DNA of 64,000 nt from an uncultured Pseudomonadales bacterium (GTDB lineage: Bacteria; Patescibacteriota; Microgenomatia; UBA1400; PJMF01): the NCBI GenBank assembly GCA_964521215.1, contig CAZFRD010000002.1:10798-74797 (forward strand), in the 5' to 3' direction. Shown here piece after piece: positions 32,440 through 49,046 of this stretch. A program made the position numbers and the translations under genes. Under the pieces are notes generated by a model. It had not been told where the DNA came from, made no database searches, and was given only the letters and a program-made list of their open reading frames with translations. Position 1 is the first letter of the stretch; every line of letters begins with the position of its first letter.

Positions 32440-32441
32440 GT

Positions 32442-32489: not shown

Positions 32490-32495
32490 CACTAG

Positions 32496-32645
32496 TGTCA
32501 CCCCGAGCCTGTCGAGGGGTGTCATACTGAGCCCGTCGAAGCATGTCACACTGAGCCCGTCGAAGTGTGAGCCCGTCGAAGCATGTCACTCTGAGCCTGA
32601 CGAAGAGTGTCACTCTGAGGGGTGTCACTCTGAGCCTGTCGAAGA
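32496..32645. repeat. Imperfect tandem direct repeats, about 24-nt unit (TGTCACNCTGAGCCYGTCGAAGNN), about 6 copies
   Basis: Visible as gtcaccccgagcctgtcgagggg / tgtcatactgagcccgtcgaagca / tgtcacactgagcccgtcgaagtg / (tgagcccgtcgaagca) / tgtcactctgagcctgacgaagag / (tgtcactctgagggg) / tgtcactctgagcctgtcgaagag. The array sits between pilin paralogs 9 and 10 and runs into the start of paralog 10. Confidence 0.7.
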
Positions 32646-33107
32646 GTGACCCCACCATGTAGTATACTTACCAGTATCATGAATTCGCTCAGGCATCGTT
32701 TCGTCATCCCGCCGTTACTCATCACGTTTTTGATTTTCAGCTTAATTCTTCCCCCTCAGGCCCAAGCCCAAACCGTCGAATGGTCTGGCGTTTGCATGGC
32801 TGGCTCGTCTGGCGGGGTCCCCACTATTCAGGGTCTTGAGTGCTTAATCGCCAATGTCTTTACCGTTATTATTACCCTTATCGGTCTGGGTGGGTTTGTG
32901 ATGTTTATCATCGGTGCATTCTTATGGATGACCGCCGGTTCTAACCCCAAAAACATCGATTCAGCCAAAAAAACTTTCACCTACGCCGTGCTCGGTATGG
33001 TCTTAGCTCTCAGCGCCTTTATTATCATTAACTTGATTGCCGATTTTACCGGCGTGAGTGTAATTAAGACTTTTAGAATTCCAACTTCTTCAACAGACTG
33101 GAATTAA
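32646..33107 (+). CDS. VirB2/TrbC-like pilin paralog 10 (GTG start)
   Basis: Signal peptide ...PPQAQAQ and 2 Cys, then IGAFLWMTAGSNPKNIDSAKKTFTYAVLGMVLAL. Confidence 0.5.
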   Translation: MTPPCSILTSIMNSLRHRFVIPPLLITFLIFSLILPPQAQAQTVEWSGVCMAGSSGGVPTIQGLECLIANVFTVIITLIGLGGFVMFIIGAFLWMTAGSNPKNIDSAKKTFTYAVLGMVLALSAFIIINLIADFTGVSVIKTFRIPTSSTDWN

Positions 33108-33155: not shown

Positions 33156-36100
33156 ATGTCTCGCCTACGCTCGATTAGCTTGGTTATGTTGGTGCTGTTA
33201 AATTTTTTCATTTTTTTTCTTAACCCTCAGTCCGCTAAAGCAGCTGAAAATAAATGTGGCGTCAATGTCGGACCATACTACAATCAAGTTTCTCAAGTTA
33301 AGTCGCTGACAAAAAATGGTGGCTGGATCGTAGTACTTGGATCACTAGGTCAGTGTGCAGATTATAGTTCTGTTTTTGGGCAGGGCTTAAACGTGGTACT
33401 TCGTGCCTATAACGAAGGTAAGCTGTTTGATGAACCTCAGGCAGATGCTTGGGTTGCTACCCTCCATCAACTCGATACCAAGGGACAAAAAGTGTATTTT
33501 ATGCCTTGGAATGAACCAAATCATGACAATGAAGGTGGTAACAGCACTGCCGGTGCAACGGTAAAAAGATATACCGATTACTTAACAGCACAACTTCGAG
33601 CAGCAGGTCTGCTTGGGACTAAAGTAGAAATACTTTCACCCATGGTTGATAAATTAAATCCCTCATTTGGTGGTCAATTTTTTACTAACCCCGGAGGTAT
33701 CTCAGGTTTTTATAATGGATTTATTGGCAGTTCAATCAATGAATACGACCATGCAAATGGAGATACTTCATACAGCAGTGCTTGCACTGCCGCACCACCA
33801 GCAAATAACTGTATGTATGATACCTTGGGCATTCCTCCACCATTCTATGCACTAGAAGCAGGTGTTGCTGGAACTGGGGAACCTCCTTTATACAGAGACA
33901 ATCAAATTGCTCTAATGTTAAACACCTCATGGTCACGCAAATGGCAAACCGATACTAATTTTGAAATGTTTGCAGTATTTTCCTACGATCCACATAGATC
34001 AGGTGATTGGGATATATACACTGCCCCTCAAACCAAAACTTTTTATTCTAATTCTTGCACTGTGGGCTCTGTGCAGAGCAGCACTTCGGTTGATGAAAAT
34101 AAGTTTACAAATTGGTATAACCCAAAGCAGAGTCAGTTAGTTGCTTGCGCCAGTGGTTGCGGTTTTGCTCCCAGTTCTCACCCGGAGCTCTGTAATGCAG
34201 CAGGAAAAAATGAGAACAATTTCGAGGGCTATGATACATCTCTTTACGACGACTACGACACTGTGCAAGATCAATTTTATATTCACCCCATCAAAGGACT
34301 CAATCGAGCTCAAGATGGAAGTCAGGGTGCGTTTGACGCCAATCTCAAAACTATCCGTGACGATTTGATCACTCAGGGATATGAGTCACGTTGCGCCACT
34401 CCGGGTTTCAACATAGAACTAACCCAAGATGGTAAAGACTGGATGGCAGATTACGTGGAACAAAACCCTCCGGGCGCTGTCTTTGGTGGACATGAAAATT
34501 ACATAATTCGTACCAGAGTGGCCGGCGATCCACCGGGAATCGGTGATTACGTTCGTTCCTGGTTGGCAGTGGATTATCGTGAGGTACAAACACCAGTTTT
34601 TCGGGATGTTTCGGACAAGCGCTTTTTGATGACTTCGCTGGAAGAATTTTTTGGCTTCAAAGACACAGTCGTCCAAGAACAATCACCAGCCGAACTCAAC
34701 TCCGCCGCAATCAACTCTCTGCTGACTAACCAACAGCGTTGCGAAGCCTCGGTCAGAATTTTGCTCAGACAAGAAGAAATGTGTAATAAGTTGGCCGACC
34801 CCAATGCTTGTGCTCTCTACTCTCGGCCCGTTCCGCAAACCAATTTCACCATCAAAACCATGTTGGAAGCTTATAAAGCTTTGGTAGCTGCGCCTCCCTC
34901 CACCATCAAACCCAATCCTTTGCCCCCCTACACCGATCCTGCCACCATTAAAGCCATTTGCTCTGAACTAGTTGGGTCAGATTGGAACGAAACAGCTAGA
35001 GAAGGCTTGCTTTACACCCCGCTCACTATTGATCGTGCCTACCGACTAGCTTTCTTAGTGACCACCATCGAGGTGTTCCATGCGACTTATAAAAGTATGT
35101 TTAATCTTTACATCCATCCCAATGAGGGACCAGCAGAAGATGGTCCAAGTAAACCAGACGATGCCGTGTTAGTAAATGCTTTTAAAGTTCCTGATATTCT
35201 CACTACCACGCAGTTGGAAAGTGCTGGCTCGGGTGGAAGTGGCAACACAGCCTGGACGGATTCGAGTAAGCTGACGCGTAACTCGCTGCTAACCAAGAAA
35301 AACCAGGATGTGCTGACAAAGACTGTTAATGCAAAAGTTGCCGAACTAAAAAAAGCAGCCGAACATTATGATACGAACAAGCAAGAGTCTGGAGCAGACG
35401 AAATTTACTGTTTGGAGGGTGTTTCTAATCGAGGCATTGGCCCCCCCGAATGCAAGGATGAATTAGGCAAAGCTGTAATTGACATTATCAATGCTCAAGC
35501 AAGCAATCGCGTTACCACCAAGTATGATAATCAAATCGATGCTGAGTGTCCTGAACTAATCAAGGAGCCAGCCAGTAGTATTCTGGATTTCGGTTCATTC
35601 GGGACGGTTGAGACAATCAAAAACCCACCAGCCGAACTACTTTATACTCAAGAATTTGGTGCCAAACTTTTGCATAATATCTTCGAGGTTCCCGAAAAAA
35701 ATCAGGATCCTGCGGGATTACTTGACAGCTCTCATCAAATAGAGCCCAAGGGCGACAGTCACCCTTCTTTTGCCGAAACCTGGAAACCGGGAGATCCGCG
35801 TGCAGAGACTAATGATATAGCCCCAGGTGAACCAAATAGCGAGTGGGGACTCAAATCGCTGTTCCATGTCACAGATAGAACATATCCCAAATTTCCCTAC
35901 AACGCCTGTTGTGACGTGAGCGAAGTGAAACACTTTTTGGTCTATCCCATGGGCTATGACATGCAAAAAGTTCAGGAGGTTTTGGCTGGTACATTTTTTA
36001 CTACCGAACAAATCGCCAGTTTAACCACAGCAGCAGAAGAGTTTGACCGGATTCAACTAAGTGGGGATCAAATAGATTTCACTGGGGGAACTAGAGAGCA

Positions 36101-36980
36101 CACTTTTGCCGATATCGTGAAAGGTGAACCAATTAGTGGCAATAAACTCAACTGGCCTGATGGTGTTGATTTTATCTCGGTCAATGATCCAGTCAAAGAT
36201 TCGGTATTTGAAATTGATCGTTGTCAAAAAGTCTATGAAACTATTTGTGATGACATCGACCCTATCACTGGAGTGAGAACAAATTGTCATATCGAACACG
36301 TGGGGTGGGAACTACCCTGTGACAGAACTTTTGGTTGGGCTATCAAACAAAAAGGCTCGGCTCTGACAGCCGGATTACTTGGGGGACGATTTGGCTTTTG
36401 GTTACGCGAAATTCAAAAGGGGCTCAATACCAAAGCTGGCACCGCTCGCGAATATCTTGATACCTGCAAAACAGTGGAACAATTCCTCACTGGCCATTGT
36501 GGGCAACCAGTTGACCCCGTCCCCACGCCCGACCCACCCGATCCCAACTGTACAGAACTGAGTTGTACCCCACCCACGCCAGTGCCACCCACAGCTACGC
36601 CAATCCCTCCAATGCCGACTGGTAGTGGAGGTTGCACCGATCCGACTCAAGATGCACTTATTTTTGAAACATATGTAAATGAAAACCGAGAATGGAAAGT
36701 AAAATTAACTTGCCCAAGTTGTACTGGAGGTTGGGGAGATATTGCAACTAATATCACTCTACCAACTGGAGAATCTTGGAATTGGGCGGGAAATTATCTT
36801 CCAGTAGGTGGCTATCTAGAGCTACCATGCGGAGGTGACCCCCCCTGTGTTGGACACGGTAGCAAAGTACCAGATGACTTTCATGGCCAATGGTGTGTTA
36901 GTGCAGTTGTTACCAGCAGACCAGCGGGCAATCAGTGTCAAGGCACCCTTTACTTCTATGCATGCACAACAGTGCCGTAG
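33156..36980 (+). CDS. Large secreted Cys-rich protein (1274 aa) with possible GH-A-clan-like N-terminal domain and C-terminal Pro/Thr-rich region; candidate adhesin or enzyme
   Basis: N-terminal signal peptide (LNPQSAKA|AE). YFMPWNEPNHDNEGG resembles the GH5/GH-A 'NEP' acid/base motif, which is weak evidence. The protein has more than 40 Cys. The linker PVDPVPTPDPPDPNC..PPTPVPPTATPIPPMP lies near the C-terminus. There is no LPXTG motif and no TM segment after the signal peptide. Confidence 0.45.
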   Translation: MSRLRSISLVMLVLLNFFIFFLNPQSAKAAENKCGVNVGPYYNQVSQVKSLTKNGGWIVVLGSLGQCADYSSVFGQGLNVVLRAYNEGKLFDEPQADAWVATLHQLDTKGQKVYFMPWNEPNHDNEGGNSTAGATVKRYTDYLTAQLRAAGLLGTKVEILSPMVDKLNPSFGGQFFTNPGGISGFYNGFIGSSINEYDHANGDTSYSSACTAAPPANNCMYDTLGIPPPFYALEAGVAGTGEPPLYRDNQIALMLNTSWSRKWQTDTNFEMFAVFSYDPHRSGDWDIYTAPQTKTFYSNSCTVGSVQSSTSVDENKFTNWYNPKQSQLVACASGCGFAPSSHPELCNAAGKNENNFEGYDTSLYDDYDTVQDQFYIHPIKGLNRAQDGSQGAFDANLKTIRDDLITQGYESRCATPGFNIELTQDGKDWMADYVEQNPPGAVFGGHENYIIRTRVAGDPPGIGDYVRSWLAVDYREVQTPVFRDVSDKRFLMTSLEEFFGFKDTVVQEQSPAELNSAAINSLLTNQQRCEASVRILLRQEEMCNKLADPNACALYSRPVPQTNFTIKTMLEAYKALVAAPPSTIKPNPLPPYTDPATIKAICSELVGSDWNETAREGLLYTPLTIDRAYRLAFLVTTIEVFHATYKSMFNLYIHPNEGPAEDGPSKPDDAVLVNAFKVPDILTTTQLESAGSGGSGNTAWTDSSKLTRNSLLTKKNQDVLTKTVNAKVAELKKAAEHYDTNKQESGADEIYCLEGVSNRGIGPPECKDELGKAVIDIINAQASNRVTTKYDNQIDAECPELIKEPASSILDFGSFGTVETIKNPPAELLYTQEFGAKLLHNIFEVPEKNQDPAGLLDSSHQIEPKGDSHPSFAETWKPGDPRAETNDIAPGEPNSEWGLKSLFHVTDRTYPKFPYNACCDVSEVKHFLVYPMGYDMQKVQEVLAGTFFTTEQIASLTTAAEEFDRIQLSGDQIDFTGGTREHTFADIVKGEPISGNKLNWPDGVDFISVNDPVKDSVFEIDRCQKVYETICDDIDPITGVRTNCHIEHVGWELPCDRTFGWAIKQKGSALTAGLLGGRFGFWLREIQKGLNTKAGTAREYLDTCKTVEQFLTGHCGQPVDPVPTPDPPDPNCTELSCTPPTPVPPTATPIPPMPTGSGGCTDPTQDALIFETYVNENREWKVKLTCPSCTGGWGDIATNITLPTGESWNWAGNYLPVGGYLELPCGGDPPCVGHGSKVPDDFHGQWCVSAVVTSRPAGNQCQGTLYFYACTTVP

Positions 36981-37013: not shown

Positions 37014-37874
37014 CTATTTCCTCGAAACCGACACCGTCATTTCCTCCGGTCTTTTTGCTTTTTTGGGTTTCTCCGCTTCAACTTCTTTGATTTTGGCAAT
37101 CTTTCTCACCTCAGTCTTGACCGGATTGGACATAACTTCGCGCACTGGCACCCAAGTACGCTCGCCTCCGGCTCGCATCAGCTCTGCCACCACGCCAAAA
37201 GTCTCCGCCGTCAAGGTGCCATAATGCAAGCCTCTAGTTTTATCCTCAAGACCCAACAACAGATTGGTGGCCACTGGGGCAGAAACCGCCAGTTGCGCTT
37301 GCTTCAGCAATTCTGCCACCAGTTCGGACAAAGAACTCAGCCCCATGCTCGTCAACTGCAAAGTGCCAAAACTAGTTTCATACTCGTGCAAACTAATTAC
37401 TGAACTATTGGTATAAATATCCTCATAGCCCAAATAGATACTGCCCAAGCTTTCCAGATCTGATACTCCCACGGTGATAATCAAGTCGGGCTCTGCCCCA
37501 CTGTAGGAAAACTCAACTAACTTAGAATCTAATGGTTCGGCCCCTTTTTTGGGTTTAATCGTTAAATAAAACTTCCCCGTTTCCTCTCCAATGTGGTAAC
37601 TAATTTTATCCACTTTTTCTTCGCTGTAATCAAAACTGACCAACAAATTTTGGTGACCAAAAGTAGTGGCAACTTGATCTATCCCAACAAGATGAGGGTT
37701 AGACTTAGGCAGTTCGGGAGAAAACAAACGCACCGATTTGCCCGCTTCTTGGAGGGCCACAAACAAACTAGTGGCTGCAGCCACAATATCCAGGTCTGTT
37801 GAATTTTCAAAAACCACCGCTATGTCCTGAGCTTGCTGAACTATCTCGGAAAATTTTGTGGCGTTTTCCACCAT
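37014..37874 (-). CDS. Hypothetical cytoplasmic protein (possibly degenerate DHH/DHHA1-like fold)
   Basis: 286 aa, the only reverse-strand gene between the secreted giant and the VirB6-like gene. It shows loose resemblance to NrnA-type phosphoesterases, but the DHH motif is absent. Confidence 0.3.
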   Translation of the reverse strand: MVENATKFSEIVQQAQDIAVVFENSTDLDIVAAATSLFVALQEAGKSVRLFSPELPKSNPHLVGIDQVATTFGHQNLLVSFDYSEEKVDKISYHIGEETGKFYLTIKPKKGAEPLDSKLVEFSYSGAEPDLIITVGVSDLESLGSIYLGYEDIYTNSSVISLHEYETSFGTLQLTSMGLSSLSELVAELLKQAQLAVSAPVATNLLLGLEDKTRGLHYGTLTAETFGVVAELMRAGGERTWVPVREVMSNPVKTEVRKIAKIKEVEAEKPKKAKRPEEMTVSVSRK

Positions 37875-37995
37875 ATCACTCCTTTTTCAAATGAACATTA
37901 ATATGCTAGGGCAGGGAAACAACCTCATCATATCACCATCTCTGACTATCAAACAAGCACAAATTCACTCGATTGCTCATCCGAAGATTAATCTA

Positions 37996-38001
37996 TATAA
38001 T
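37996..38001 (+). promoter_or_regulatory. -10 hexamer TATAAT 10 nt upstream of the ATG at 38012
   Basis: atcTATATAATagacaccgctATG. Confidence 0.4.
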
Positions 38002-38011
38002 AGACACCGCT

Positions 38012-39760
38012 ATGAAATTAACCGCTCAGGTGGTCAAGTTGTGTTTGGTTGTTTTAGTGAGCGGTTTGCTTTTTACTTCTACCCTTGCTTTTGCCGGAGT
38101 AATTAGCGCACAAGATTCCAGTTCCAGTACCCCCAGTGAAGTCGACATCACTGCAGATGAATTAGCCGACTACCGTCTAGCCACAGCCGATTGTTCCACG
38201 CCATCGCTAGAATGTTTGGTCCGTAACGTTTCACGTTTTACTGCTATTGAGTGGGTGCAGGATATTATTGGCAAAGATAATAAGATCTGTATCGAGGAAG
38301 AAGGATGCACGGATCTAAGCAGTAATAATTCCGGCACCAATGTGGCAGATACTGGAGCCATCGGCAGTTTGTCTAACTTAATTACTGCCATGTATACCCA
38401 CCCCGTGGCAGACACCCAGACGTATGTGGCGTACGTGCTCAAATCTGCTCATATTACCGCTCCCGCCTACGCCCAGGGACTTGGGTTCTCTTCGCTTGAT
38501 CCAGTGCTCAATTTATGGACCACCTTTCGCAATATTGCCTACATGTTTTTTGTGCTGATTTTTGTAGTGGTGGGCTTCCTAATTATGTTCCGCCAAAAAG
38601 TCGGCCAGACGGCCATTACTGCCCAACAAGCGATTCCGCAAATCATTATTTCTCTAATTCTGGTTACTTTTTCCTACGCCATTGCTGGTTTGTTGATTGA
38701 TTTGATGTATGTGTTGATGGCACTAATCATTGGTGTTTTCTCTTCATTTTTTAGCGATGATGTTTTTGGCTATAACATTTTTCAGTTGGGAGGCAAGTTG
38801 TTCGAGGGTGCTGCAGATTTTTATCGCAACAAGGATTTTATTTCTGGCTTTTTAACAGGTCTTGATATCAATGGGGCTGCCAACCAAGTAGTCAGTTTAA
38901 TAAGCAGTTTGACGCTGATGATTATTCTAACGATAGCGATGTTGATTGGAATTGTGAGGTTGTTTTTCGAGCTACTAAAGTCATATGCCACTATTGTCAT
39001 CTCCGTAGTAGTAGCACCACTATTGCTGATGATGGGAGCTATTCCTGGTAGAAGCAATGCTTTTGGTTCATGGATCAAAACCCTAGTTGGCCACCTCTCA
39101 CCGTTCCCCGTAATCTTGATGGTGTTGGTGATGTTTTATGCTTTTACAGAAGGCGCAGTTAATGCTAGTAGTGGCGGTTTTATGCCACCATTTTTGCTCA
39201 ATGCCGGTAATGGTATTGGTGAAAGTATTATTGCGCTCATGAGTTTGGCCATTATTTTGGCTCTACCAGATATTGTGATAAAAATCAGAGATGGCATAGC
39301 GCCAAAGGATGCTTTTGGAGAACTGATAACTAACAAGGGCTGGAGTAACTTCAAAGATGGTTGGACGGGCAAGACCCCTTGGGGTAAAATGCCATTGGGA
39401 ATGAGTGGAAGGAATATTTCTAAGTTGGGTGTGGGTGCCACTACGGCTGGGGTAGGCGCAATTGGTGGTGCAGGAATTGGATTTGTTAAAGGAGGGGGAA
39501 CCATGAAAGAACGTCTCGGAAGAGCTGGTCAGTATGCTGGAGCTGGTGCGATTGGTGGCGCCATAGCACCTATCGCAATTCCCAAAGTGCCGAGATTGGT
39601 AAAAGGAATTGTAAAAGAAACTATGGGTAGTGCAGTTAGCTACACCGTTGGAGATGTTGTTGAAGAAAAGTTAGATCAGTTCAAAGCATACAGAGAAGAC
39701 AAAAAAGCTCAAAAGGGTGGAAATCGGAAGAGCGACGCTGCAGGTCTAGACAGAAACTAA
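38012..39760 (+). CDS. VirB6/TrbL-like polytopic membrane protein (T4SS channel component candidate)
   Basis: The start was moved to the ATG at 38012 (MKLTAQVV..., signal peptide). A ~170-aa Cys-containing extracytoplasmic domain is followed by at least 6 TM helices and a Gly-rich charged C-terminal tail. The topology and size are typical of VirB6/TrbL/PrgH-like proteins, but there is no sequence-motif proof. Confidence 0.45.
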   Translation: MKLTAQVVKLCLVVLVSGLLFTSTLAFAGVISAQDSSSSTPSEVDITADELADYRLATADCSTPSLECLVRNVSRFTAIEWVQDIIGKDNKICIEEEGCTDLSSNNSGTNVADTGAIGSLSNLITAMYTHPVADTQTYVAYVLKSAHITAPAYAQGLGFSSLDPVLNLWTTFRNIAYMFFVLIFVVVGFLIMFRQKVGQTAITAQQAIPQIIISLILVTFSYAIAGLLIDLMYVLMALIIGVFSSFFSDDVFGYNIFQLGGKLFEGAADFYRNKDFISGFLTGLDINGAANQVVSLISSLTLMIILTIAMLIGIVRLFFELLKSYATIVISVVVAPLLLMMGAIPGRSNAFGSWIKTLVGHLSPFPVILMVLVMFYAFTEGAVNASSGGFMPPFLLNAGNGIGESIIALMSLAIILALPDIVIKIRDGIAPKDAFGELITNKGWSNFKDGWTGKTPWGKMPLGMSGRNISKLGVGATTAGVGAIGGAGIGFVKGGGTMKERLGRAGQYAGAGAIGGAIAPIAIPKVPRLVKGIVKETMGSAVSYTVGDVVEEKLDQFKAYREDKKAQKGGNRKSDAAGLDRN

Positions 39761-39880: not shown

Positions 39881-42800
39881 TTATATATCAAACAGCTCTT
39901 TTCTTGATCTTTCAGACGCATTTAGAAGCGACTCTTCGATGAGTCTCTGCATCTTATCAATTTCCTTATTGATCTTCTTAGAATGTTCGCCTGTAATGAA
40001 TCCCGCTTTCACTGCAACTCGTAAAATATCCCTTACCTGACTTCTTTTCAATGCAACAGAAAGCTCTGCTACCTGAAAGTTGTGATGAATTAAGCCAAGA
40101 AGGTACATATATTGAAAATCAAACTGTATTTCTTTGGCCTTTAAGTTTGCCTCTTTCGCTAATTTACTTAAGTCGTCTGCCAACTTAGCGTTCCCACTCG
40201 CCCTAGCACTCTTTGCGCGTTCTCCCAATACAACCGCTTCATTCATTTGGTCCCTCAAACCATAAATAAACGGGTGCAAATAGGTAAGTGTATTGGTCAA
40301 TCTTTGATATGTCGACACCTGACTATATTCGCTTGAATTGAGTCCCGTTTTGATTAGTTCTCCCTTGATAAAATGAGCGGTGTTTTTCATTTGCCTGTAC
40401 CACGTTGCCAACGCATCTTCTTCAATATTGTCCCATGGCATATTCTCTACCATAAGCTCTCCCTGCGCATTCCTATATGACATAAAGTCAATAATGTTGC
40501 CTTTTGCATCCAAGTTAGTCGTCATCTTTCTTTTGTACTCAACCCCATCTTTGTTGACGGTGTATACCGTACCTTCATAACAATGATGAAAGAATCCAGG
40601 AAACAAATCCCACCTCGTATCTAATCGATCTCTTTTGCCAGGAGGTAAAACATAAATTACCGGCTTCGCGTGACCAGCAACTCCCCGCTGATCATTGTAA
40701 TCAAAATATCCTGTCAGAGTAATTTGTGGACCTGATTCAGCATCTTTGCCTTTGTATTTCCTTCTAAATTCAGAAAAGTGGATCACCTCTCGAACCTGAT
40801 CCTTAATTACCGCTGCATTTAAGATATCTAACTCACTTGCGCGAAAAAGCGATCTATACAGCCTATAGGCAATCATTGCGGAGGCGGGGTCGGTTTGACT
40901 TGTAACAAACTTTATCACCCTGTCTCTATCTGCTGTAAGCGTAGAACTATCAACATCTGGCAGCGCTGGTTCTTGACCGGTCATAATTCTATCCATAATT
41001 CTCCACGCTGCACCAACTTTCTTGTGACGAAATAAGTGACCGAGTTGCGAACTTCTAAGATCAACCTCGTTTTGCCGAATTGTTTCAATCATTATGTCCT
41101 GGGTACTTTCAACCATTCTATAAACATCATTAAGTTCTTTTCGGGCGCTGATCATCGTTGAAATATAGTCAACTTCTGCCTGAGCAATTTTGCCTTGAGC
41201 AACCAAACTAGATAACTTGTCCCTCATTGCAATCATTGCGTTGTATTCACCTACGTTAATTGTGTCTTTAAAGCCGGCATAAGTTTCCTCTATCTTTAGA
41301 ATTTTTGCTTCAAACCACTCTCTGCTCACAACCTCTGGCTGCTCTTTACTTCTTCTAATGCACTGATCCAAGTGGCGAGTGGCCTCACCATAGTTGGTGT
41401 TTAGACCTGAAATAGCTGATCCAACTGATTTACTTTGTGGAAATTTTTTTGAATTATCCAATAAATTCTGACTTATTACAAGATTGTGTGCATCTGTTAG
41501 TCTTAATTTAAACCCAGGATTTGCTAGGGTGCCACTTTCTAACATTGCGGTGTCATAACAGGTAGCCCCAGTTGTTCCACAGTGTGGTGCAATATTTTTC
41601 GCTATATCGATTGCCCTTACTTCCCTAATTATTTTTGTTAAAGCAATTATTTCTGGCTGCTTTTCCCACTCTTCTTTACCAGCGGTATCAATTCTTTCCT
41701 TTAATAATGCGTCAGCTTTTTGTTTTCGCTTTAGCAATTCTAATCTCGCCTTCTCAATCTGAGGATTTGGCGATGGATTTTCAATCAAATGTGCAATAGA
41801 ACTACTTCGAGCTTCTAAGCCCTGTGATAGAATTACGGCATTGGCATAAGATTTCGTTGTCACCAATGAGTTACCACCCGTATCTATAATACTATCAATG
41901 AACACAGCTAGTTGATTCACATCAGTTTTCCACTTGGTAAATTCAAGTACTTGACCGGTCTCCAACTTTATTTGTTTCAGCTCATCAAGACACTTTTGTG
42001 CTGGAATCCAATACTTCTGAGACAAATAGTCCTCGTAAATTTTTCCAGAAACTTTACTTGCCAATAGTGTTTTATTACTATCAAGCTGTGTCTCAATTTG
42101 CGAGATATGTAAGAAATTAGGAGAACCTAAGGAAATTGCCTGTCTGGCTTGCTCGGTGATTACTCTAAGCATTTGAAGGCTTGGGGTTGTTTTTTCCAAA
42201 TTTGACTTCCACTGCTCGAAAACTCTAGTTACTAAACCAAGCTCTAACTTATCTAGTCGACTACCGACATGATCTTTAAGTTCTTCGGCACTCAATCTTT
42301 CTTCATTTATGGTACTTCCAGATAATACGCGAATGGCTCTCTCAAATGAAACTCTTGTATTACGAATAACTTCGAGAGCATTGTTACCAGTATATTCAGG
42401 CAGCGGTATGGTTGGATCAAAATTGGTGTCTACTAGTTTTTTTTCTAGATCATCGATTGATCGCTGGACCCCAGAAATAATCGTATCTAACCCATTCTCT
42501 TTCGCACTGGGAATAACTAGTTCTTGTAATCGACCTATGGCCTTTTGAATTCGCTTAAGTCTAGATCCAGCAATATCTGACCAAGAGTTCTTGAGTCGAG
42601 TAGCCTCAAGATGCGCGTCTTTGTCTGAAAATGCTTGGGCTACCAACAACTCTAATGCTGATTCGATTTGTTCAGCTTCTTCAACTAGGATTTCTAGTTC
42701 ATTTTGTGTACTCGGCAAAGTCATCGAATCCTGGATCCACTTTCTTACTAACATGTCTGCTGCTATTATTTTCTCTTCAATTAGATTGGGGGCTAATTCC

Positions 42801-43093
42801 AGCGCAACCCGGTCATTAACTTGAACGACTTCTTCAGGTTCAATTTCATCTTGAGTTGCGTGACTTTTTTGGTAATCAGATTGAGTAATACCAAATTTTT
42901 CAAGCAGCACTATTTTAAAAGATTCTGGAATATTTTTCGATTTATCGAGCCCACGAAGCATCTCGATAAGTTCATTTCTGAGCTTTTCCACTGGCTCAGT
43001 ATCTAATGATTTTGTTGCACGCACTAAGGCTTGCGAAAATTCTGCCAGCGAATACACACTACCACCTGATATCTCTCCTCTTGGTTCAGTCAT
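39881..43093 (-). CDS. Large soluble protein of unknown function (1070 aa)
   Basis: Long alpha-helical, charged sequence with no TM segment, Walker motif or HUH/relaxase motif recognised. It is transcribed opposite to the surrounding T4SS genes. Confidence 0.4.
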   Translation of the reverse strand: MTEPRGEISGGSVYSLAEFSQALVRATKSLDTEPVEKLRNELIEMLRGLDKSKNIPESFKIVLLEKFGITQSDYQKSHATQDEIEPEEVVQVNDRVALELAPNLIEEKIIAADMLVRKWIQDSMTLPSTQNELEILVEEAEQIESALELLVAQAFSDKDAHLEATRLKNSWSDIAGSRLKRIQKAIGRLQELVIPSAKENGLDTIISGVQRSIDDLEKKLVDTNFDPTIPLPEYTGNNALEVIRNTRVSFERAIRVLSGSTINEERLSAEELKDHVGSRLDKLELGLVTRVFEQWKSNLEKTTPSLQMLRVITEQARQAISLGSPNFLHISQIETQLDSNKTLLASKVSGKIYEDYLSQKYWIPAQKCLDELKQIKLETGQVLEFTKWKTDVNQLAVFIDSIIDTGGNSLVTTKSYANAVILSQGLEARSSSIAHLIENPSPNPQIEKARLELLKRKQKADALLKERIDTAGKEEWEKQPEIIALTKIIREVRAIDIAKNIAPHCGTTGATCYDTAMLESGTLANPGFKLRLTDAHNLVISQNLLDNSKKFPQSKSVGSAISGLNTNYGEATRHLDQCIRRSKEQPEVVSREWFEAKILKIEETYAGFKDTINVGEYNAMIAMRDKLSSLVAQGKIAQAEVDYISTMISARKELNDVYRMVESTQDIMIETIRQNEVDLRSSQLGHLFRHKKVGAAWRIMDRIMTGQEPALPDVDSSTLTADRDRVIKFVTSQTDPASAMIAYRLYRSLFRASELDILNAAVIKDQVREVIHFSEFRRKYKGKDAESGPQITLTGYFDYNDQRGVAGHAKPVIYVLPPGKRDRLDTRWDLFPGFFHHCYEGTVYTVNKDGVEYKRKMTTNLDAKGNIIDFMSYRNAQGELMVENMPWDNIEEDALATWYRQMKNTAHFIKGELIKTGLNSSEYSQVSTYQRLTNTLTYLHPFIYGLRDQMNEAVVLGERAKSARASGNAKLADDLSKLAKEANLKAKEIQFDFQYMYLLGLIHHNFQVAELSVALKRSQVRDILRVAVKAGFITGEHSKKINKEIDKMQRLIEESLLNASERSRKELFDI

Positions 43094-43172
43094 TTACAAT
43101 ATTATATCAAGAAATGGCAAGAGCTAACAGACCTCACTTGTTGAATTGATTGTTATGATGTAGTCTGAATAC

Positions 43173-44228
43173 ATGAGTGAAAATGAGTACAACCCCGAAA
43201 ACGATGCTAGTGCTGGTTTCACCTCAGCGATGGAGGCTGGCAATGGAGCTGCAACAAAAACGGTGCCCGAAGTTGGTGATGGTCAAGCACAATTGAACGC
43301 AACGAACTCAGGCACGATTCAAGAAGATTCGACCCAAGAGTCAATAAGCATTAACGCCACACTTACAGAACAAATGCCAGCTTACCTCAATGCCCTAGAG
43401 GAACAGCTCGAAATTGGCGAAGATGTCTGGAACTATGAAAAAGCAGATGAATTAATTAAGCACATTGCCCCTAATAACGAAGTTCGTGAAGAAATACGAC
43501 GAAACCACCCCTCACTAGAAGAGAAATTGCTTGTTCTAGAGGAACAAAACGAAAAGGCTAGGCTTAAGAGACAAAATACATTACTATCCGAGCTAGCTAT
43601 GGAGGAGGAATTATCCCAAGCGGTTCAAGGCATAGACCTTGAAAGCAGTGGAGTAGATCAAGTACTGGTTGATGATTTGAAACCTGTTGAAAACGAAAAA
43701 ATATTTATCGATCTGGATGAAGATGGGAACGAAGGGGATGCGACCGGTACAATTAGGACGGAGCGAGAGGAGCATTCAATTGGTTCAAAAGCATTATTTG
43801 TGTTGTTGGTTCTGTATGATATTACCCAAGGTGGTCAGAGCTTGCGTGTAGCAGCAAGAACGGGTCAAGAACCTTTATTAGAGTTGATAGGGATCAATCC
43901 AGATAGGGCTAAAAGAATTATAGAAAAATCAAGAGCTCAAGAAAAACTCTTGTTCTCGCTATCTCCTGTTCGGCTTAAGGATTTCTTTGAAACAAAAATA
44001 AAAAGAGGTTACCGACAAGAAATCGTAACCTTTTTAGCTGGAATTTCTAGGGAGACTCGCGTCGATTTACTTAGTGGACGAGAGGTTCTTCCGAGAGGAC
44101 TAGGGCGATACTCTCATCTTCTTGATCAGGCTCAAATTCAACAGATCCTTGGTGCTTTAAAACCAGAAGATATTGACAGACTAGATCTGAATGACGTAGT
44201 CGCCCAACGACAACCAAATACAACATAG
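43173..44228 (+). CDS. Acidic hypothetical protein (351 aa)
   Basis: Glu/Asp-rich ORF transcribed divergently from the 1070-aa gene. No recognisable motif. Confidence 0.35.
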   Translation: MSENEYNPENDASAGFTSAMEAGNGAATKTVPEVGDGQAQLNATNSGTIQEDSTQESISINATLTEQMPAYLNALEEQLEIGEDVWNYEKADELIKHIAPNNEVREEIRRNHPSLEEKLLVLEEQNEKARLKRQNTLLSELAMEEELSQAVQGIDLESSGVDQVLVDDLKPVENEKIFIDLDEDGNEGDATGTIRTEREEHSIGSKALFVLLVLYDITQGGQSLRVAARTGQEPLLELIGINPDRAKRIIEKSRAQEKLLFSLSPVRLKDFFETKIKRGYRQEIVTFLAGISRETRVDLLSGREVLPRGLGRYSHLLDQAQIQQILGALKPEDIDRLDLNDVVAQRQPNTT

Positions 44229-44329
44229 TTTTTGTAGAAATTGCTCGTCCCAATTTAATATTGAATAGTGCAATTATTATCTGACTCGCTATACTAGAAA
44301 CTAGTATTAATCCAAATTAGGTTCTGTCT

Positions 44330-44824
44330 ATGGGAGATATCTTAACACCAACGCCAGATGATGTACTCAGAGAGGGACCCAAGTTCAGAAACGACAGAGT
44401 TACTTCTGTAGCCTATAAGCTAAATCGAGGTGCTGAAGTCACACTAAGTGAGCTCACCACCTTTTTAGAATCTCTTGCGCCTCCAAGCAACGAAGGTTTG
44501 CCATATTATGTCAAGAAAGTTGCAGATGGTGTTGCGAAAGAGAGAAAGATTAAGTTATTCCCCATATTATGGGGTGACTCATCAAAAATCATGGTTGGCT
44601 ATATACCAAATTCAGAACAACCCAACCAAGACAGCTTCTTTGACTTAAATAGCGTTAAGTTGGTTTGTGAGTTCGAACTTGGGAATGCTGGAGACTTCAA
44701 CCAAAAATCGCCATCTACTGAAGAGATTAGGCAAAAAATTGAGGCGTTTTTTGAAAAGCAAGATATGCATCGATCAATTAGAGACACCATTGATGCAATT
44801 CAAAAACAATTTACTGGTTTGTAG
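44330..44824 (+). CDS. Hypothetical protein (164 aa)
   Basis: ORF with an AGGT-type spacing before the ATG. No motif recognised. Confidence 0.35.
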   Translation: MGDILTPTPDDVLREGPKFRNDRVTSVAYKLNRGAEVTLSELTTFLESLAPPSNEGLPYYVKKVADGVAKERKIKLFPILWGDSSKIMVGYIPNSEQPNQDSFFDLNSVKLVCEFELGNAGDFNQKSPSTEEIRQKIEAFFEKQDMHRSIRDTIDAIQKQFTGL

Positions 44825-44915: not shown

Positions 44916-47900
44916 ATGGCGGATGATTCCTCTGAAAAAACTATTAGCCAACCAAAGAGGTTGGTCTCCGGCTTTGCCCTTAATAACCTTGCTCACAGAC
45001 AGTGGCTGGCGGTTTTTTTGGCTGGACTGCAAGAGGCGCTATTTAAAGAAAACAAACTAGTAGAAAACCTCAAAATACCAGTTTGGTTTGGTTCTAAACC
45101 CTCGTGGGTCATCTTAACCACCACCGACGCAAAGAGAGATCTCGACGATCCCGCTCGAGACGAGAAGTCTTTATTTCCCACCGACATCGTTTACCTAATA
45201 GTCGATCTGGCCATAAGACTTGATGTTCCCCGCAAAGAGATTGAATATTATCTATCGAACGCCACTAGAGATGGGGACCTGTTCATAGAATCCACTGTTT
45301 TAGACACTCAAACTATCACTGAACTGAAAACACTTGTTGACGAAATCGGTAAGAAATTAGAGTTGGTAACAAAACAAGAGGACAAACAGAAAGAAGAGGA
45401 GGCTCCACCGACATTGGAAAAAGGTCCAGCTGAAGCTGTCAAACCTGTTGCCCCACCCCAAAAGGGGGTTACAACCGCAGGGGTTAAACCCACCCCAACC
45501 GAAGGTGGAGATCAAGCTGAAACACAAGTTGAACTACCCGGAGCAGTCGCGGCCTCGACAGTCATAAGCGCTCAAGCCGCCGCCCGAACCAAGAGATATG
45601 AGTTTGCCTGGATCTACAACCATTTTTTGTTCGACCTGACAGGCAAATATGGCATTGAGCCAAGTGATGAGTTGAGGGCACAACTCCAAGGAATTGTTTC
45701 AGAGCATCTGGGCACTATTTCTCCAGATGAAATGGCTAGTTTTTTTGCCAATCCCACTGCGCGTTTAAGAGCGATTCAAGCTATTTACCAAAAACTTAAC
45801 CTTCAAGATGACTTTAAGCAAAAGCTCAGTAATCAATATGACACTTACCTGCTAACTGCCACTGATTCACAAAAACAACAATTCCTACAAAGCAACAACT
45901 TCGCAAATGGCGGGTTGAAGATAATCGAAAACTTACAGAATTTTCAATTAGAAAATAATCAGTCGGGAGTGATCAAACAAGCCGAGACAACGCTGGCTGG
46001 TCTCACTGGTACGGCCATTGACGGCCCAACGGCTTTAAACTTTGAACGAGCCATCGAGGCATTAGCTCTCACTATGGGTTCCAAAACCGTGGCAACAGAC
46101 TTGGGACTGAGTTACCCAGAAAATAAGGCAGACCTGGAGACCTTCATTAAGAAGCTCAGCGCCAAACAGATAGCCCAGATCTTTTTCCCCAACCCCAATA
46201 AGCCAGATGAAGTAGATGACAAGATACTGTTAGCTATTGAGCAAAATCTTAGCTCAATTCAAAATCTACTTACCGCTACTCTGCTGGCAACTTCGCTGGA
46301 AAAACTAGCCACCGCACCGAATGAGTTAAAAAAACTTGTCGGCATAGCAGTCTTTACTGACGATGATCTTAAAGGCGACCAGACCGCAATCGAATCTGCA
46401 ATCGTCAGTGTGCGAACGCTTACCGGCGCGATGCCGGTTACTGGCAAAGACGACGACGTAACTCCTGCAATTACCACCAGCCACACCCAGCAGCTAATGG
46501 AACAATACCAAAAGCGGGTGCAAAAAATTTGGGCGTCTTTGGAAGAAGAGTCTCAACTGCGGGCTTACTACGCCCTATTTGGACTAACTGAGGATCCTGC
46601 CAACCACCAAGTTTTGTTGGATAAAGTCCAGCACCTTAGAATACCGGGTAGCAACAAATTACCCTGGAATCCTAATTTGATCAACTTGATCAATTGGGAA
46701 GATTTCTTAAGAAAAGATTACAAAGAAAACCAAAGGGTCGCGGCTCTTCGCGCCAAAGCCGCCGAGGGCTTTACCAAAAACCTCAGTCAGCTCCAACTTG
46801 AACAACTGCAAATCAGCCACTTACTTAACGAACTAGAAAACGGCGTGGTCTATGCCGAGGGCGTTGCTCACAAAATCAACCAAAACGAAGATATTGTTGA
46901 TCTTGAATTCCGCTCGGTACTAAACACACTAGACTTAGTCACCACTCGTTTGGACTTACTTAAAAGTCGAAAATTGGCTGAAGATGATGAAAAATTCAAT
47001 GTTGCATTAAACGAAAGAGTTGACAACCTTTCCGGTCGCTGTACGACAGTTTTATCCACCCTAGCTGGCTATAACCGCTTGGCGGGCCTACTGCAGAATT
47101 ATCAAAATCTCACCTTGGTTGAAACCTATCAACTATCGCTTGAGTACGAAATTCCCGAAATTTTACTCTACCAAGTTGGGGATATTACTCAACCGGGTTT
47201 TAATCAGCAAGCTGAGTTGTCCGACAGAGTCACAGCCGATAACTTACTTGATGACCCTTCCTCAATGTCGCTCGGCCAACTCAATGCTGCTGCGAGAAAG
47301 AGCAACGAGCTACATCCTAGTCGACTCGATCAAATTAACCTTGCCAACCAAAACAATCAGGCGCTTAATGATCTAAAAAACATAGTTGGTGGAGTGGGAG
47401 AAATAGCTGCTCAGTCAAAAGGCAACTGGGTAGCTGCGGCCGGTCTGGGTATTAAGAAATACCTCACCGACAAGGAATTTCGCCAAAGCATCAACCGGAC
47501 AGCTAAAAGATACGCAAAAAAAATAGCCTTGTTAGGTGGAATTGTTGTTGGAGGTGGAGTAGCAATCGGATTGCTTCTTAGACATTTGCTAGGAATGGCT
47601 GGACAGTGGGGCGGGATGCTTGGAGGAGCGTTGGCTGGCGGCACCGTTGGAGCGGCACTTGGACCACTTGGAGTAATATTGGGAGCGGGAATTGGGGGAT
47701 ATTTAGGATATAACGTTGGAGCCAAAGCCGCCGCCCTCAATGCTTCATCTGGGGCGGAATTGCTATCACCCAGTAGTTCAGCCGCCCAACCGATTTTCCA
47801 AGAAGAAGTCCTTTCGTCCTCACCCGCCACTTTTCAATCTGCCACTAGTGGCACTGGCATGGAAGCTACCACCCCAGCTGCCGCCACAGCTTCCCCCGTT

Positions 47901-49046
47901 GCTTCTTCTGCCGCCACCTCCGTTGCCACCCAAGCTCCTTTTCTTGGCAGTCTGGCTGGCATCCCAGTCTTAGCCTTAATCCCCGCCCTATCAATGCTGT
48001 CGCTGGCTGGGATCACGCTTTACACTTTGTTTGTAATTTTTTCCGCTTTCCTCGCCCCTCTACCCGTGGGCAACCTCGGTGGTGTCAACACCACTAAATC
48101 TGAATATGCGGTGCTGACAAAACTGGCATCACCGGGGTCACTATCAAACAACACGACCGCCAACGTCAACTACAAAATTATCTTGCAACCTAGAAGGAAT
48201 TATTCGCTCAAAGTAACCGCTGTGACCGATAGCGCCAACACTGGCTTCAACTTTCAATCTAATCGCTCAGGCAAAATTAATCCCCAAGTTTCACCACCCG
48301 CCAGCTTGCTCAATCCTCGTATTTCTTTGGCAGACTTTTCTCCCGATTTTTTTGGTCAGACCCAACTAAAAGAATATAGTGTCACCTTCTCTGGGGGCAA
48401 GGACGTGCTGGTTAGTAACGTGATAAAAATTACCTACGATGTCCAGGATGCTCAAGGCAATTCCATTGCCACTAACCAAACGATTGACGCCATCGCCAAT
48501 GTGTCCATTGGCGACCATGGCGTATTTTGCTGGCCCACAACGGGAGAAATAATCCAGTTGCCAGGGGGCAGTTTTTCACACAATAACTCTGACGCATTTG
48601 ATATTTCAGCTCCAAAAACCAACAAGGTCTACACCCCATTTGCTGGCTGGGCTCAAAAGGGCGATATGGGTAATAGTGATTATGGCAAATACGTAGTAGT
48701 TGACTCATATGTGCAAGGAAGGTGGATCAGAATTATTTACGCTCACTTAAGTAGCGCTGCGGTGGGTACTCCCACAGCCCACACGTGGCTTAATATAGCC
48801 TACAACCATGACGACAACCAAGCGAACAACATTGGTCAACAAGTTGGCGCTGGTCAACTAATTGGCGCAGTCGGCTCCACTGGCAACTCTACAGGACCAC
48901 ACCTTCATTATGAGCTCATATATATTAACGGCAGAAGACATACTTTCGGAAGTGGATTCAGCCTTATTAACTTAGTGCCTCCAAGACCTGCGGGGGGCAA
49001 ATACAGAGTAGGAGATTATGTTAAAACCTGTTATCCATTTAATTAA
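44916..49046 (+). CDS. Giant bitopic protein with C-terminal peptidase M23 (LytM) domain; PrgK/VirB1-like peptidoglycan hydrolase candidate
   Basis: 1376 aa. The first ~870 aa are helical and soluble. Two Gly-rich hydrophobic segments follow (IALLGGIVVGGGVAIGLLL...GALAGGTVGAALGPLGVILGAGIGGYLGY), then an Ala/Ser/Thr-rich linker. The C-terminus carries the M23 motifs (GDHGVF..., AVGSTGNSTGPHLHYELI). A TATAAT lies 7 nt before the ATG. Confidence 0.75.
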   Translation: MADDSSEKTISQPKRLVSGFALNNLAHRQWLAVFLAGLQEALFKENKLVENLKIPVWFGSKPSWVILTTTDAKRDLDDPARDEKSLFPTDIVYLIVDLAIRLDVPRKEIEYYLSNATRDGDLFIESTVLDTQTITELKTLVDEIGKKLELVTKQEDKQKEEEAPPTLEKGPAEAVKPVAPPQKGVTTAGVKPTPTEGGDQAETQVELPGAVAASTVISAQAAARTKRYEFAWIYNHFLFDLTGKYGIEPSDELRAQLQGIVSEHLGTISPDEMASFFANPTARLRAIQAIYQKLNLQDDFKQKLSNQYDTYLLTATDSQKQQFLQSNNFANGGLKIIENLQNFQLENNQSGVIKQAETTLAGLTGTAIDGPTALNFERAIEALALTMGSKTVATDLGLSYPENKADLETFIKKLSAKQIAQIFFPNPNKPDEVDDKILLAIEQNLSSIQNLLTATLLATSLEKLATAPNELKKLVGIAVFTDDDLKGDQTAIESAIVSVRTLTGAMPVTGKDDDVTPAITTSHTQQLMEQYQKRVQKIWASLEEESQLRAYYALFGLTEDPANHQVLLDKVQHLRIPGSNKLPWNPNLINLINWEDFLRKDYKENQRVAALRAKAAEGFTKNLSQLQLEQLQISHLLNELENGVVYAEGVAHKINQNEDIVDLEFRSVLNTLDLVTTRLDLLKSRKLAEDDEKFNVALNERVDNLSGRCTTVLSTLAGYNRLAGLLQNYQNLTLVETYQLSLEYEIPEILLYQVGDITQPGFNQQAELSDRVTADNLLDDPSSMSLGQLNAAARKSNELHPSRLDQINLANQNNQALNDLKNIVGGVGEIAAQSKGNWVAAAGLGIKKYLTDKEFRQSINRTAKRYAKKIALLGGIVVGGGVAIGLLLRHLLGMAGQWGGMLGGALAGGTVGAALGPLGVILGAGIGGYLGYNVGAKAAALNASSGAELLSPSSSAAQPIFQEEVLSSSPATFQSATSGTGMEATTPAAATASPVASSAATSVATQAPFLGSLAGIPVLALIPALSMLSLAGITLYTLFVIFSAFLAPLPVGNLGGVNTTKSEYAVLTKLASPGSLSNNTTANVNYKIILQPRRNYSLKVTAVTDSANTGFNFQSNRSGKINPQVSPPASLLNPRISLADFSPDFFGQTQLKEYSVTFSGGKDVLVSNVIKITYDVQDAQGNSIATNQTIDAIANVSIGDHGVFCWPTTGEIIQLPGGSFSHNNSDAFDISAPKTNKVYTPFAGWAQKGDMGNSDYGKYVVVDSYVQGRWIRIIYAHLSSAAVGTPTAHTWLNIAYNHDDNQANNIGQQVGAGQLIGAVGSTGNSTGPHLHYELIYINGRRHTFGSGFSLINLVPPRPAGGKYRVGDYVKTCYPFN

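Follow-up and report, generated by a model that had tools for sequence, protein, structure and literature searches.

What role is played by a large soluble protein that is encoded on the opposite strand in the middle of a type IV secretion system (T4SS) cluster, and are the two smaller genes beside it its partners? The question is raised by a stretch of 64,000 nucleotides (referred to here as the window) from contig CAZFRD010000002.1 of an uncultured bacterium assigned to the Patescibacteriota, in which gene A (39881-43093, minus strand, 1070 residues), gene B (43173-44228, plus strand, 351 residues) and gene C (44330-44824, plus strand, 164 residues) are situated between two genes of the T4SS. 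The left neighbour encodes a polytopic membrane protein of 595 residues referred to as VirB6-like (37973-39760, plus strand), and the right neighbour (44916-49046, plus strand) encodes a fusion protein of 1376 residues with a C-terminal Peptidase_M23 domain (PF01551, Pfam E-value 5e-15). Gene A is convergent with the VirB6-like gene, divergent from gene B and opposite in strand to the remainder of the cluster. An original prediction, made from the sequence of the window, had described three genes of no recognisable family at this place inside a T4SS locus, and had proposed that A could be a substrate or toxin and the acidic B its chaperone or immunity factor; the positions, the strands and the T4SS context of the three family-less genes have been confirmed.

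In the present analysis A is found to be a two-module protein whose relatives occupy the same place in every locus available, and whose C-terminal module is matched in type by the C-terminal tail of the VirB6-like protein. Judged from the comparison of these loci, the tail, A and the genes following it make up a cassette that is hypervariable and recombining, at a fixed site of the T4SS cluster. The element that co-varies with A is this tail, which was absent from the candidates of the original prediction.

Gene A, its relatives and its modules

A phmmer search of 1.84 billion representative sequences has identified 17 clusters of the A family, and a word-based search three relatives. The relatives are 1040-1250 residues long, barring one sequence of 970 residues and one fragment of 135 residues, and the closest named one comes from a metagenome-assembled genome (MAG) of Candidatus Woesebacteria. 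Genomic context has been recovered for 13 further loci (L001-L007, L009-L015, L017), which with the window make a sample of 14 loci from one narrow lineage of ultrasmall, Woesebacteria-like bacteria. In all the 14 loci the homologue of A adjoins the VirB6-like gene, the M23 gene or both, and its slot and orientation are identical: its 3' end faces that of the VirB6-like gene, and it is transcribed away from the M23 gene. The genetic association with a T4SS that is looked for in T4SS effectors is thus seen as the same synteny throughout. The block does belong to the T4SS locus, as had been proposed, and the opposite outcome, of homologues lying only outside T4SS contexts, was encountered in none of the 14 loci.

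The family appears to be narrowly distributed. No relative of A was seen in the viral contigs scanned, and none was found by phmmer in the T4SS of other Patescibacteria, the 17 clusters being all that the search returned. A scan of metagenomes gave two loci, one of which is a duplicate of L012, and a scan of species-representative genomes gave a single match, on a contig of 3.2 kb (L008, CAYNWG010000087.1). This contig is binned in a MAG labelled 'uncultured Pseudomonadales' and probably stems from a Patescibacteria genome, as a contaminant of the bin. In L003 a Transposase_mut (MULE) gene (129-1058) is situated beside the 3' end of the A homologue, in the place expected for the VirB6-like gene, and may represent the insertion of an insertion sequence at the cassette border in one population.

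Homologues of A, B and C are all encoded in syntenic loci. Together with the purifying selection seen on A and B, this shows that the three are genuine genes and not chance open reading frames. No significant match was obtained for any of them in Pfam, NCBIfam, PHROGs, PADLOC or the sequences of the Protein Data Bank (PDB), and profiles built for the two modules of A, for B and for C gave nothing below an E-value of 0.02 against PDB sequences. The match of A to the PADLOC family typeIV_DinG (E-value 4e-4, 17 bits), which lies on a coiled stretch of residues 135-220, has been judged spurious. The literature searched gave no account of the A family or of a covariation between a tail and its partner in Patescibacteria.

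A has a pI of 6.1 and is soluble, with no hydrophobic segment, signal peptide, transmembrane (TM) segment or lipobox. The AlphaFold2 model obtained from an alignment of 19 sequences has an overall predicted local distance difference test (pLDDT) score of 71 and is 66% helix, in agreement with the earlier description of a helical soluble protein. Confident helical bundles (pLDDT 80-92) extend over residues ~100-590, and the region 750-945 is poorly modelled. A separate model of the C-terminal module, at pLDDT 55, left the conserved core (residues ~750-870 of A) unmodelled and was too poor for a fold search. The search of the A model against PDB with Foldseek returned generic helical repeats only, with E-values above 0.07.

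Three regions are distinguished in A, all on the minus strand. The N-module (41405-43093, residues 1-563) comprises a small N-terminal domain (residues ~12-78), a linker of low confidence (79-102) and then long helical bundles; its conserved motifs include FDP, FEQWK and GKEEW, and it carries a Cys/His cluster (H504, C505, C512). A hinge helix (41291-41404, residues 564-601) follows, with the sequence HLDQCIRRSKE at residues 574-584. The C-module (39884-41290, residues 602-1070) is of a type designated Ca, for which the invariant motifs include AYRL, RxSExD, GPxxT, WD[LM][FY]PGF[FL]H, IxDF, PW[DE] and RD[IV].

The two halves of A have different relatives. The N-half shares 47% identity over residues 1-601 with P0002, P0003 and P0009, 27-30% with P0015-19 and, more weakly, 22-33% with P0020-24, and is also common to P0008. 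The C-half shares 73% identity with P0008 and 29-39% with P0010-P0013, which in their N-halves cannot be aligned with A. P0016-19 have N-halves that are 41-59% identical, yet four different C-halves. When the members are compared all against all and their junctions aligned, every module junction falls at the hinge, HLDxCIxxSKE. Alignments of the N-half with A stop at residues 570-601, and three of the four alignments of the Ca C-half begin at residues 564-568, that of P0010 at residue 635. At least seven C-types have been recognised, with N- and C-halves shuffled among the members of the family. An N-region followed by a variable C-region exchanged at a conserved junction, as in polymorphic toxins, is therefore present in A. 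Comparison with hhalign suggests that Ca, Cf and Cg are distantly related (probabilities of 93, 95 and 61%), and no relation of these to Cb, Cc, Cd and Ce was detected with profiles that are shallow, at 1-6 sequences each.

Several Cys and His residues near the hinge (C368, H504, C505, C512, H574 and C578; ~41360-41992) are kept in most relatives of the N1 type. P0017 has lost the equivalents of C505 and C578 together, and P0010 is without any Cys. These residues may make up a metal site or a pair of Cys that only one N-type possesses.

The idea that A is a substrate or toxin has found a footing in its modular and variable character, which fits a substrate or a specificity factor; the search for a toxin or an enzyme, by remote homology and by structure, came out empty. 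Eight variants of A scanned against Pfam have no domain, toxin domains included, and no toxin or enzyme fold was found in A by Pfam, PDB profiles or Foldseek, with the conserved core of the C-module lacking a confident model. The C-terminal secretion signal for which the prediction had proposed to look did not appear either. Translocation-signal domains (BID, XVIPCD, E-block) are absent by Pfam from A and from the eight variants, and the C-terminal ends, inspected by eye, are not conserved across types and are not notably basic. A Walker A motif occurs neither in A nor in 17 of 18 relatives. With no TM anchor, no P-loop and no match to AAA or TraG families, A does not resemble a type IV coupling protein (T4CP) such as VirD4 or TcpA.

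The VirB6-like tail and the borders of the cassette

The VirB6-like protein has an N-terminal anchor, an outside domain of 146 residues, seven TM segments and a basic tail. No VirB6, TrbL or PrgH profile in Pfam, NCBIfam or PDB sequences matches it, and the label VirB6-like is given on topology and position only; in the literature VirB6 is described as rarely detectable in Microgenomatia. Its conserved core (37973-39371, plus strand), which shares 75-82% amino acid identity with L001 and L002, anchors the cassette on the left. The tail (39372-39760, plus strand, residues ~467-595), which is basic and rich in Gly and Ala, forms the left edge of the cassette. Between the window and L006 the synonymous divergence (dS) is 1.6 in the tail and 0.028 in the core. 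From the topology and the positive-inside rule (26 Lys and Arg residues in the tail) the tail is predicted to be cytoplasmic, on the same side of the membrane as A.

Over their last ~110 residues the VirB6-like proteins sort into types that track the type of the C-module of A. In five independent loci of the Ca type (window, L007, L009, L012, L017) the tails match one another with E-values of 4e-8 to 8e-44, and the VirB6 cores of the same loci are only 37-73% identical. These tails share the motif [KR]x[VI][VI]xE..G.A.....G[DEN].V[DEN]...D[RQ][FYL]. The tails of the Cg pair (L006 and L015) match with an E-value of 9e-45 and those of the Cb pair (L001 and L002) with 1e-63. Conversely, cores that are 99.8% identical (window and L006) or 94.9% identical (L001 and L014) bear tails that cannot be aligned and are accompanied by different types of A. 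Matches between tails of different types have E-values of 5e-7 or weaker and are confined to the Gly/Ala-rich part. The tail types of L012 and L015 were forecast before they were looked up and were found as forecast, and L017, which was added later, also fits.

Within a type the tail has diverged about as much as the core (identities of 61 and 73%, 60 and 72%, and 36 and 39% for tail and core respectively), which indicates that the tail is constrained and is not a drifting linker. Conservation of this kind is not sufficiently explained by linkage alone. The matching of types suggests that the C-module of A docks directly on the VirB6-like tail in a type-specific manner.

The contrast between the cassette and its surroundings is seen when the window is compared with L004 and L006. 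Protein identity is 99.6% for the VirB6-like core, 98.6% for a neighbouring DHH-like gene product, 98% for VirB4, 92% for PrgI and TrsD, 79% for a protein of 326 residues and 75% for the M23 protein, and falls to 62-70% for C, 35% for B and ~25% for A, in part of the N-half only. The nonsynonymous divergence (dN) between the window and L004 is 0.012 for VirB4, 0.040 for PrgI, 0.046 for TrsD, 0.117 for the 326-residue protein, 0.158 for M23, 0.178 for C and 0.69 for B. For A a dN of 0.93, with saturated dS, was calculated against L006; the A proteins of L006 and L004 share 87% identity. By these measures no gene of the locus varies more than A. Saturated synonymous sites in A and B, set against a dS of 0.03 (0.028) in the VirB6 core, point to old alleles imported by recombination rather than to recent fast evolution.

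Selection within the types is purifying. The dN/dS ratio of A within types is 0.13-0.26 overall and 0.03-0.57 in windows of 100 codons, lowest in the C-module, and no window of 100 codons exceeds 1, so that positive selection is not seen in A at this resolution. The ratio is 0.21 for B, again indicating purifying selection. For C it is 0.55-0.76 over 150-160 codons, which is below 1 and corresponds to weak constraint. Along A the dS jumps between 0.00 and 1.8, swings that are indicative of a mosaic produced by intragenic recombination.

The borders of the exchanged unit are most cleanly seen, on both flanks, when L014 is compared with L001 and L002. The N-terminal part of the M23 gene is 75-77% identical in nucleotides right up to the gene start, and the VirB6 core and the DHH-like gene are 89-91% identical from the border between core and tail, whereas the 5.9 kb and 4.1 kb between the borders share no similarity. 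The unit of exchange accordingly consists of the VirB6 tail, A and the slot genes. In a blastn comparison of the window with L006, an identity of 97.75% over 37014-39372 (L006 428-2786) stops near codon 467 of the VirB6-like gene. This near-identical tract of 2.36 kb comprises the DHH-like gene and the VirB6 core (dS 0.03-0.21), and sequences diverge on both sides of it, with the end of a secreted protein of 1274 residues 46% identical on one side and the cassette on the other. Since the near-identity is limited to 2.36 kb with divergent flanks, the two are not claimed to be near-identical strains. The segment looks as if it had itself been recently exchanged, and on this evidence the whole locus appears as a recombination mosaic. 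Repeats flanking the cassette were searched for and only short chance matches were found, so that the likely mechanism is homologous recombination, with the hinge and the conserved flanks as its anchors. A scan of the locus for promoters and terminators gave counts at or below chance.

The variable slot and the surrounding T4SS cluster

The content of the slot that separates A from the M23 gene changes from locus to locus. B is acidic (pI 4.59, 18.5% Asp and Glu), as had been described, and yet is not exceptional in this respect, many proteins of the locus having a pI of 4.6-5.5; an acidic and poorly conserved stretch of ~60 residues is followed by a conserved body. C has a pI of 5.1, and neither protein has a TM segment or a signal peptide. 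Homologues of B are P0004 (93% identity) and those of L003-6 (33-35% when aligned, 35-36% by tblastn), L007 (30%), L014 and L015; B is absent from L001, L002 and L009-L013. The C family is represented in the window, L003-6 and L014 (P0006, 70%; P0007, 62%; the 177-residue protein of L014, 36%) and is absent from more loci than B. In L014 the order in the slot is inverted, C preceding B, and a third small family of 97-99 residues is found in L014 and L015. The slot is empty in L001, L002 and L013 and holds unrelated genes in L012. In L010 (8204-9391) and L011 (8737-9867) an AAA_14/DUF4143 ATPase, oriented differently in the two loci, replaces B and C. A motif of B, LLELIGINPDRAKRIIE, which had been taken by eye for a helix-hairpin-helix, is not supported as such (HHH_9, E-value 1.7 in one member). 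B and C were also considered as split-off N-terminal pieces of the M23 protein and rejected, as the longer M23 proteins of L002, L010 and L011 do not resemble them.

The suggestion that B is a chaperone or immunity factor has found no support. Neither constant co-occurrence nor co-variation with A is seen for B and C, and of the proposed trio A alone is constant in the T4SS loci, B and C not being stable partners. B is absent from at least six loci, and its similarity between loci is flat (0.22-0.34) whether the C-modules of A score 0.75 or 0.02, in a C-module range of 0.02-0.97; B follows neither half of A and was rejected as its co-varying partner. Both genes are situated at the N-terminal end of A, and only the convergent VirB6-like gene lies downstream of its C-terminal end, so that a co-varying immunity gene directly downstream, as in polymorphic toxins, is not present. 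No covariation of the N-terminal end of A with the N-region of the M23 protein was seen either. Frequent absence, changing order, lack of covariation and position at the N-terminal end leave a role as cognate chaperone or immunity protein unsupported, and B and C are on this comparison dispensable accessory genes of a variable slot. The loci that have B are all of the C-types Ca, Cf and Cg, which are related, and none is of type Cb or Cc; this leaves room for a looser association with A.

The cluster around the cassette is a T4SS of the Patescibacteria or monoderm kind (MPF-FATA-like) by its Pfam and NCBIfam matches and its layout. An array of seven T4SS_pilin paralogues (27058-33107) is situated on the left. 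On the right, the M23 gene is followed by the gene of the 326-residue protein, a PrgI/VirB3-like gene recognised by Pfam and NCBIfam (50053-51255), a split VirB4, dnaA, dnaN and yidC. The TrsD-like (TrsD/TraC-like) N-terminal part of VirB4 (51307-52179, plus strand, 290 residues) and its P-loop part (52181-54079, plus strand, 632 residues) are separated by 1 nucleotide, and dnaA begins 12 nucleotides past VirB4. This layout agrees with the published description of the Patescibacteria T4SS, which is related to MPF-FATA, has pilin arrays and a TrsD partner, lacks a relaxase and is located next to dnaA (PMC12102498).

Some of the neighbouring genes deserve mention. The secreted protein of 1274 residues (33156-36980, plus strand), with 34 Cys and no known family, is encoded immediately behind the pilin array; residues 356-1274 share 72% identity with the L001 counterpart, and the first 355 residues cannot be aligned, which marks a variable N-terminal part. 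The DHH-like gene (37014-37874, minus strand, 286 residues; weak DHH-domain match, E-value 0.003) is also on the opposite strand within the cluster. Its position is kept in most loci (280-327 residues), and its product, 98.6% identical to the L006 counterpart, may be an unrecognised conserved cytoplasmic protein associated with the T4SS. The M23 fusion protein has a soluble, presumably cytoplasmic N-region of ~860 residues, TM segments in residues 868-1057 and then the M23 domain; its homologues span 1022 to 1706 residues, and their first ~150 residues differ between loci.

Farther upstream, a protein of 780 residues (2716-5058, minus strand) has weak signatures of coupling proteins (TrwB_AAD_bind, E-value 8e-8; DUF87, E-value 7e-8). 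Its gene adjoins that of a PilB-like T2SSE ATPase (971-2668, minus strand) and is ~35 kb from the T4SS cluster. An ATP-dependent DNA ligase (17771-19615, minus strand) and a Fic/DOC family protein (20349-21563, minus strand, E-value 3e-18) are also encoded on the upstream side of the T4SS region. Some bacteria use Fic proteins as T4SS effectors.

Possible roles of the cassette and comparison with known systems

The reading that we favour, while giving it somewhat less than an even chance, is that A is a polymorphic cargo or effector of the T4SS, or an adaptor presenting cargo, that is recruited by the VirB6-like tail. The cassette would consist of the last ~130 codons of the VirB6-like gene, A as its constant member and the slot, here filled by B and C, which would be accessory cytoplasmic proteins and not cognate partners. 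Ancient versions of the modules would be reshuffled by homologous recombination through the VirB6 core, the hinge and the start of the M23 gene. The C-module would dock on the tail as a type-specific lock and key, and A would be recruited by the channel protein directly, as the cluster encodes no coupling ATPase. We would guess that A is then translocated, and that interaction with host bacteria exerts a balancing selection which keeps the types diverse. In published work the Patescibacteria T4SS is found to be essential for epibiotic growth in the one species tested, a Southlakia; the system is devoid of a relaxase and has no coupling protein encoded in the cluster, and proteins, none of them yet named, are its suspected cargo (PMC10633639, PMC12102498, PMC12857230); a role of A as cargo fits a system of this description. 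More tentatively, tail and C-module could form a lock and key that sets what the T4SS exports or targets, with A as the first candidate for a substrate or specificity determinant and with the channel protein, in place of a coupling ATPase, as the polymorphic receptor.

A number of observations weigh against this reading. Direct signs of the export of A from the cell are not seen in these comparisons, and the searches found in A neither the fold of a toxin or enzyme nor a known secretion-signal domain, the core of its C-module being without a confident model. Presence in every locus, as a single copy at a constant site, would sooner be expected of a component of the machine than of an effector. 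A common signal, recognised by a conserved receptor, is usual among effectors, and here the presumed receptor varies with its cargo. The tails of the Cf pair match weakly (E-value 0.007), and in L013, the third Cb locus, the sequence breaks off ahead of the VirB6-like gene. As the 3' ends of tail and C-module are only 120 bp apart in the DNA, part of their co-inheritance could be plain linkage. The T4CP-like gene 35 kb away (2716-5058) means that the system may have a distant coupling protein. Because hhalign profiles of 1-6 sequences are weak, the failure to detect a relation between C-types does not prove them unrelated, and the 14 loci are a small sample of one narrow lineage.

Several of these points would be equally at home with A as a cytoplasmic subunit that is not secreted, such as a scaffold, gate or plug under the channel, which we regard as a serious if doubtful possibility. 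The C-module would then bind the VirB6 tail and the N-module VirB4/TrsD or the N-region of the M23 protein, and the types would be co-evolving interfaces reshuffled by recombination. The constant presence of A as a single copy with fixed position and orientation in 14 loci, its covariation with a machine component, the purifying selection all along it, and its long helical bundles with no enzyme or toxin fold, as are often seen in scaffolds, all agree with such a role. It is hard, however, to square one structural role with at least four C-halves that have no detectable mutual relation, and core subunits are 92-99% identical in loci where A is ~25% identical or cannot be aligned. A family of 17 clusters, found by phmmer in no other Patescibacteria T4SS, is also unlike what a core subunit would lead one to expect, and ancient discrete alleles of a cytoplasmic scaffold would be left unexplained. 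Alternatively, the slot between the VirB6 core and the M23 gene may be a recombination hot spot in which A is a fast-evolving passenger unrelated to secretion, the match with the tail resulting from adjacency alone. Tail and C-module are indeed contiguous in the DNA, the whole locus is a mosaic, and the slot takes up unrelated genes, such as the AAA_14/DUF4143 ATPase of L010 and L011 and, beside A, the transposase of L003. But A is never lost in the 14 loci while the other slot genes vary, the tail is as constrained as the core within a type even where cores are as little as 37% identical, and no member of the family has been seen away from a T4SS; such hitch-hiking is regarded as improbable.

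Recognition between cells gives two further explanations. In one, which is unlikely if slightly less so than hitch-hiking, the VirB6 tail and the C-module are a pair for distinguishing self from non-self, resembling exclusion, which would spare sibling cells or define compatibility groups among strains. Published exclusion systems likewise have a gene adjoining that of a VirB6 homologue and co-varying with one of its regions in discrete groups, and ancient alleles existing side by side are fitting for recognition loci. Against this, A has 1070 residues, is soluble and has no TM segment, where YddJ has ~100 numbered residues; the locus is chromosomal, beside dnaA and without a relaxase, and so is not a conjugative element in need of a block to re-entry; and the cytoplasmic tail of the donor would have to reach A in another cell. 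In the other, which we hold to be the least probable of all, A is a toxin of the polymorphic kind whose C-terminal toxin domain can be swapped, and B, C or both provide immunity or a chaperone. A conserved N-half, a variable C-half and a conserved junction motif are in keeping with CdiA, Rhs and LXG toxins, the small to medium-sized, acidic and soluble B and C lie in the same cassette, and the restriction of B to the related types Ca, Cf and Cg, never Cb or Cc, is in its favour. The eight variants have no toxin domain in Pfam, however, the C-halves of 470-710 residues exceed the familiar toxin tips, and beyond the C-terminal end of A there is only the convergent VirB6-like gene; B and C are found at the N-terminal end, change their order and are absent from six loci or more, with the similarity of B remaining flat.

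The cassette provides a concrete pair, the VirB6 tail and the C-module, that bears on what the T4SS of Patescibacteria handles or recognises. Should the two bind each other, the choice of cargo or target would be explained, and the cytoplasmic tail of a channel protein would act as a variable receptor. The cassette could also mark types of host range or compatibility in uncultured populations. These prospects apply to a narrow uncultured lineage, and the functional steps are all drawn from sequence comparison.

On comparison with known systems, A resembles the polymorphic effector and toxin modules as well as the pairs that target VirB6, and fails the defining features of each, and we have assigned it to no family. 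With CdiA-CT/CdiI, Rhs and LXG it shares C-terminal parts that are swapped at a junction motif and ancient alleles that are reshuffled among related strains. It differs from them in having no toxin domain and no immunity gene downstream, in an N-terminal part that is polymorphic too, in C-terminal parts that are much larger, at 470-710 residues, and in its co-varying partner, which is a piece of the secretion channel and not an immunity protein. CagA with CagF in Helicobacter and VirE2 with VirE1 in Agrobacterium are substrates encoded in T4SS loci with an adjacent chaperone, and CagA varies chiefly in repeat motifs. Like CagA and VirE2, A is large, family-less, mainly helical, polymorphic and encoded in a T4SS locus, with small acidic neighbours. 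It has no similarity to them in sequence or fold, its neighbours B and C are inconstant, whole modules are replaced instead of repeat motifs, and its translocation is putative.

The familiar exclusion factors are small membrane proteins or lipoproteins of about 70-150 residues that act in the recipient of a conjugative element. In the pairs TraS/TraG, Eex/TraG and YddJ/ConG, as for A, the gene adjoins one of the VirB6 family and the two have matched variable regions, a likeness that is seen at the level of sequence. The VirB6 homologue TraG is the target of TraS in F and of Eex in SXT/R391, with cytoplasmic determinants and adjacent genes (PMC11493245). ICEBs1 is a monoderm system, of the class to which the Patescibacteria T4SS comes nearest; here YddJ acts on ConG, again a VirB6 homologue, and the specificity region of ConG is an extracellular loop (bioRxiv 10.1101/2021.01.25.428195). 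A is unlike the small membrane factors in being a soluble two-module protein of 1070 residues encoded with a chromosomal, relaxase-less T4SS, and the variable region of the VirB6-like protein is unlike that of ConG in being a C-terminal tail and not an extracellular loop, with no similarity in sequence. A parallel to the tail itself is offered by the 'extended' VirB6 proteins, which have a hydrophilic C-terminal region of obscure role (PMC12857230). The VirB6-like protein of the window, so named on its topology, is likewise polytopic with an extra hydrophilic C-terminal region; it differs from them in that this region is a short basic tail of ~130-160 residues, which exists in discrete types linked to a partner gene.

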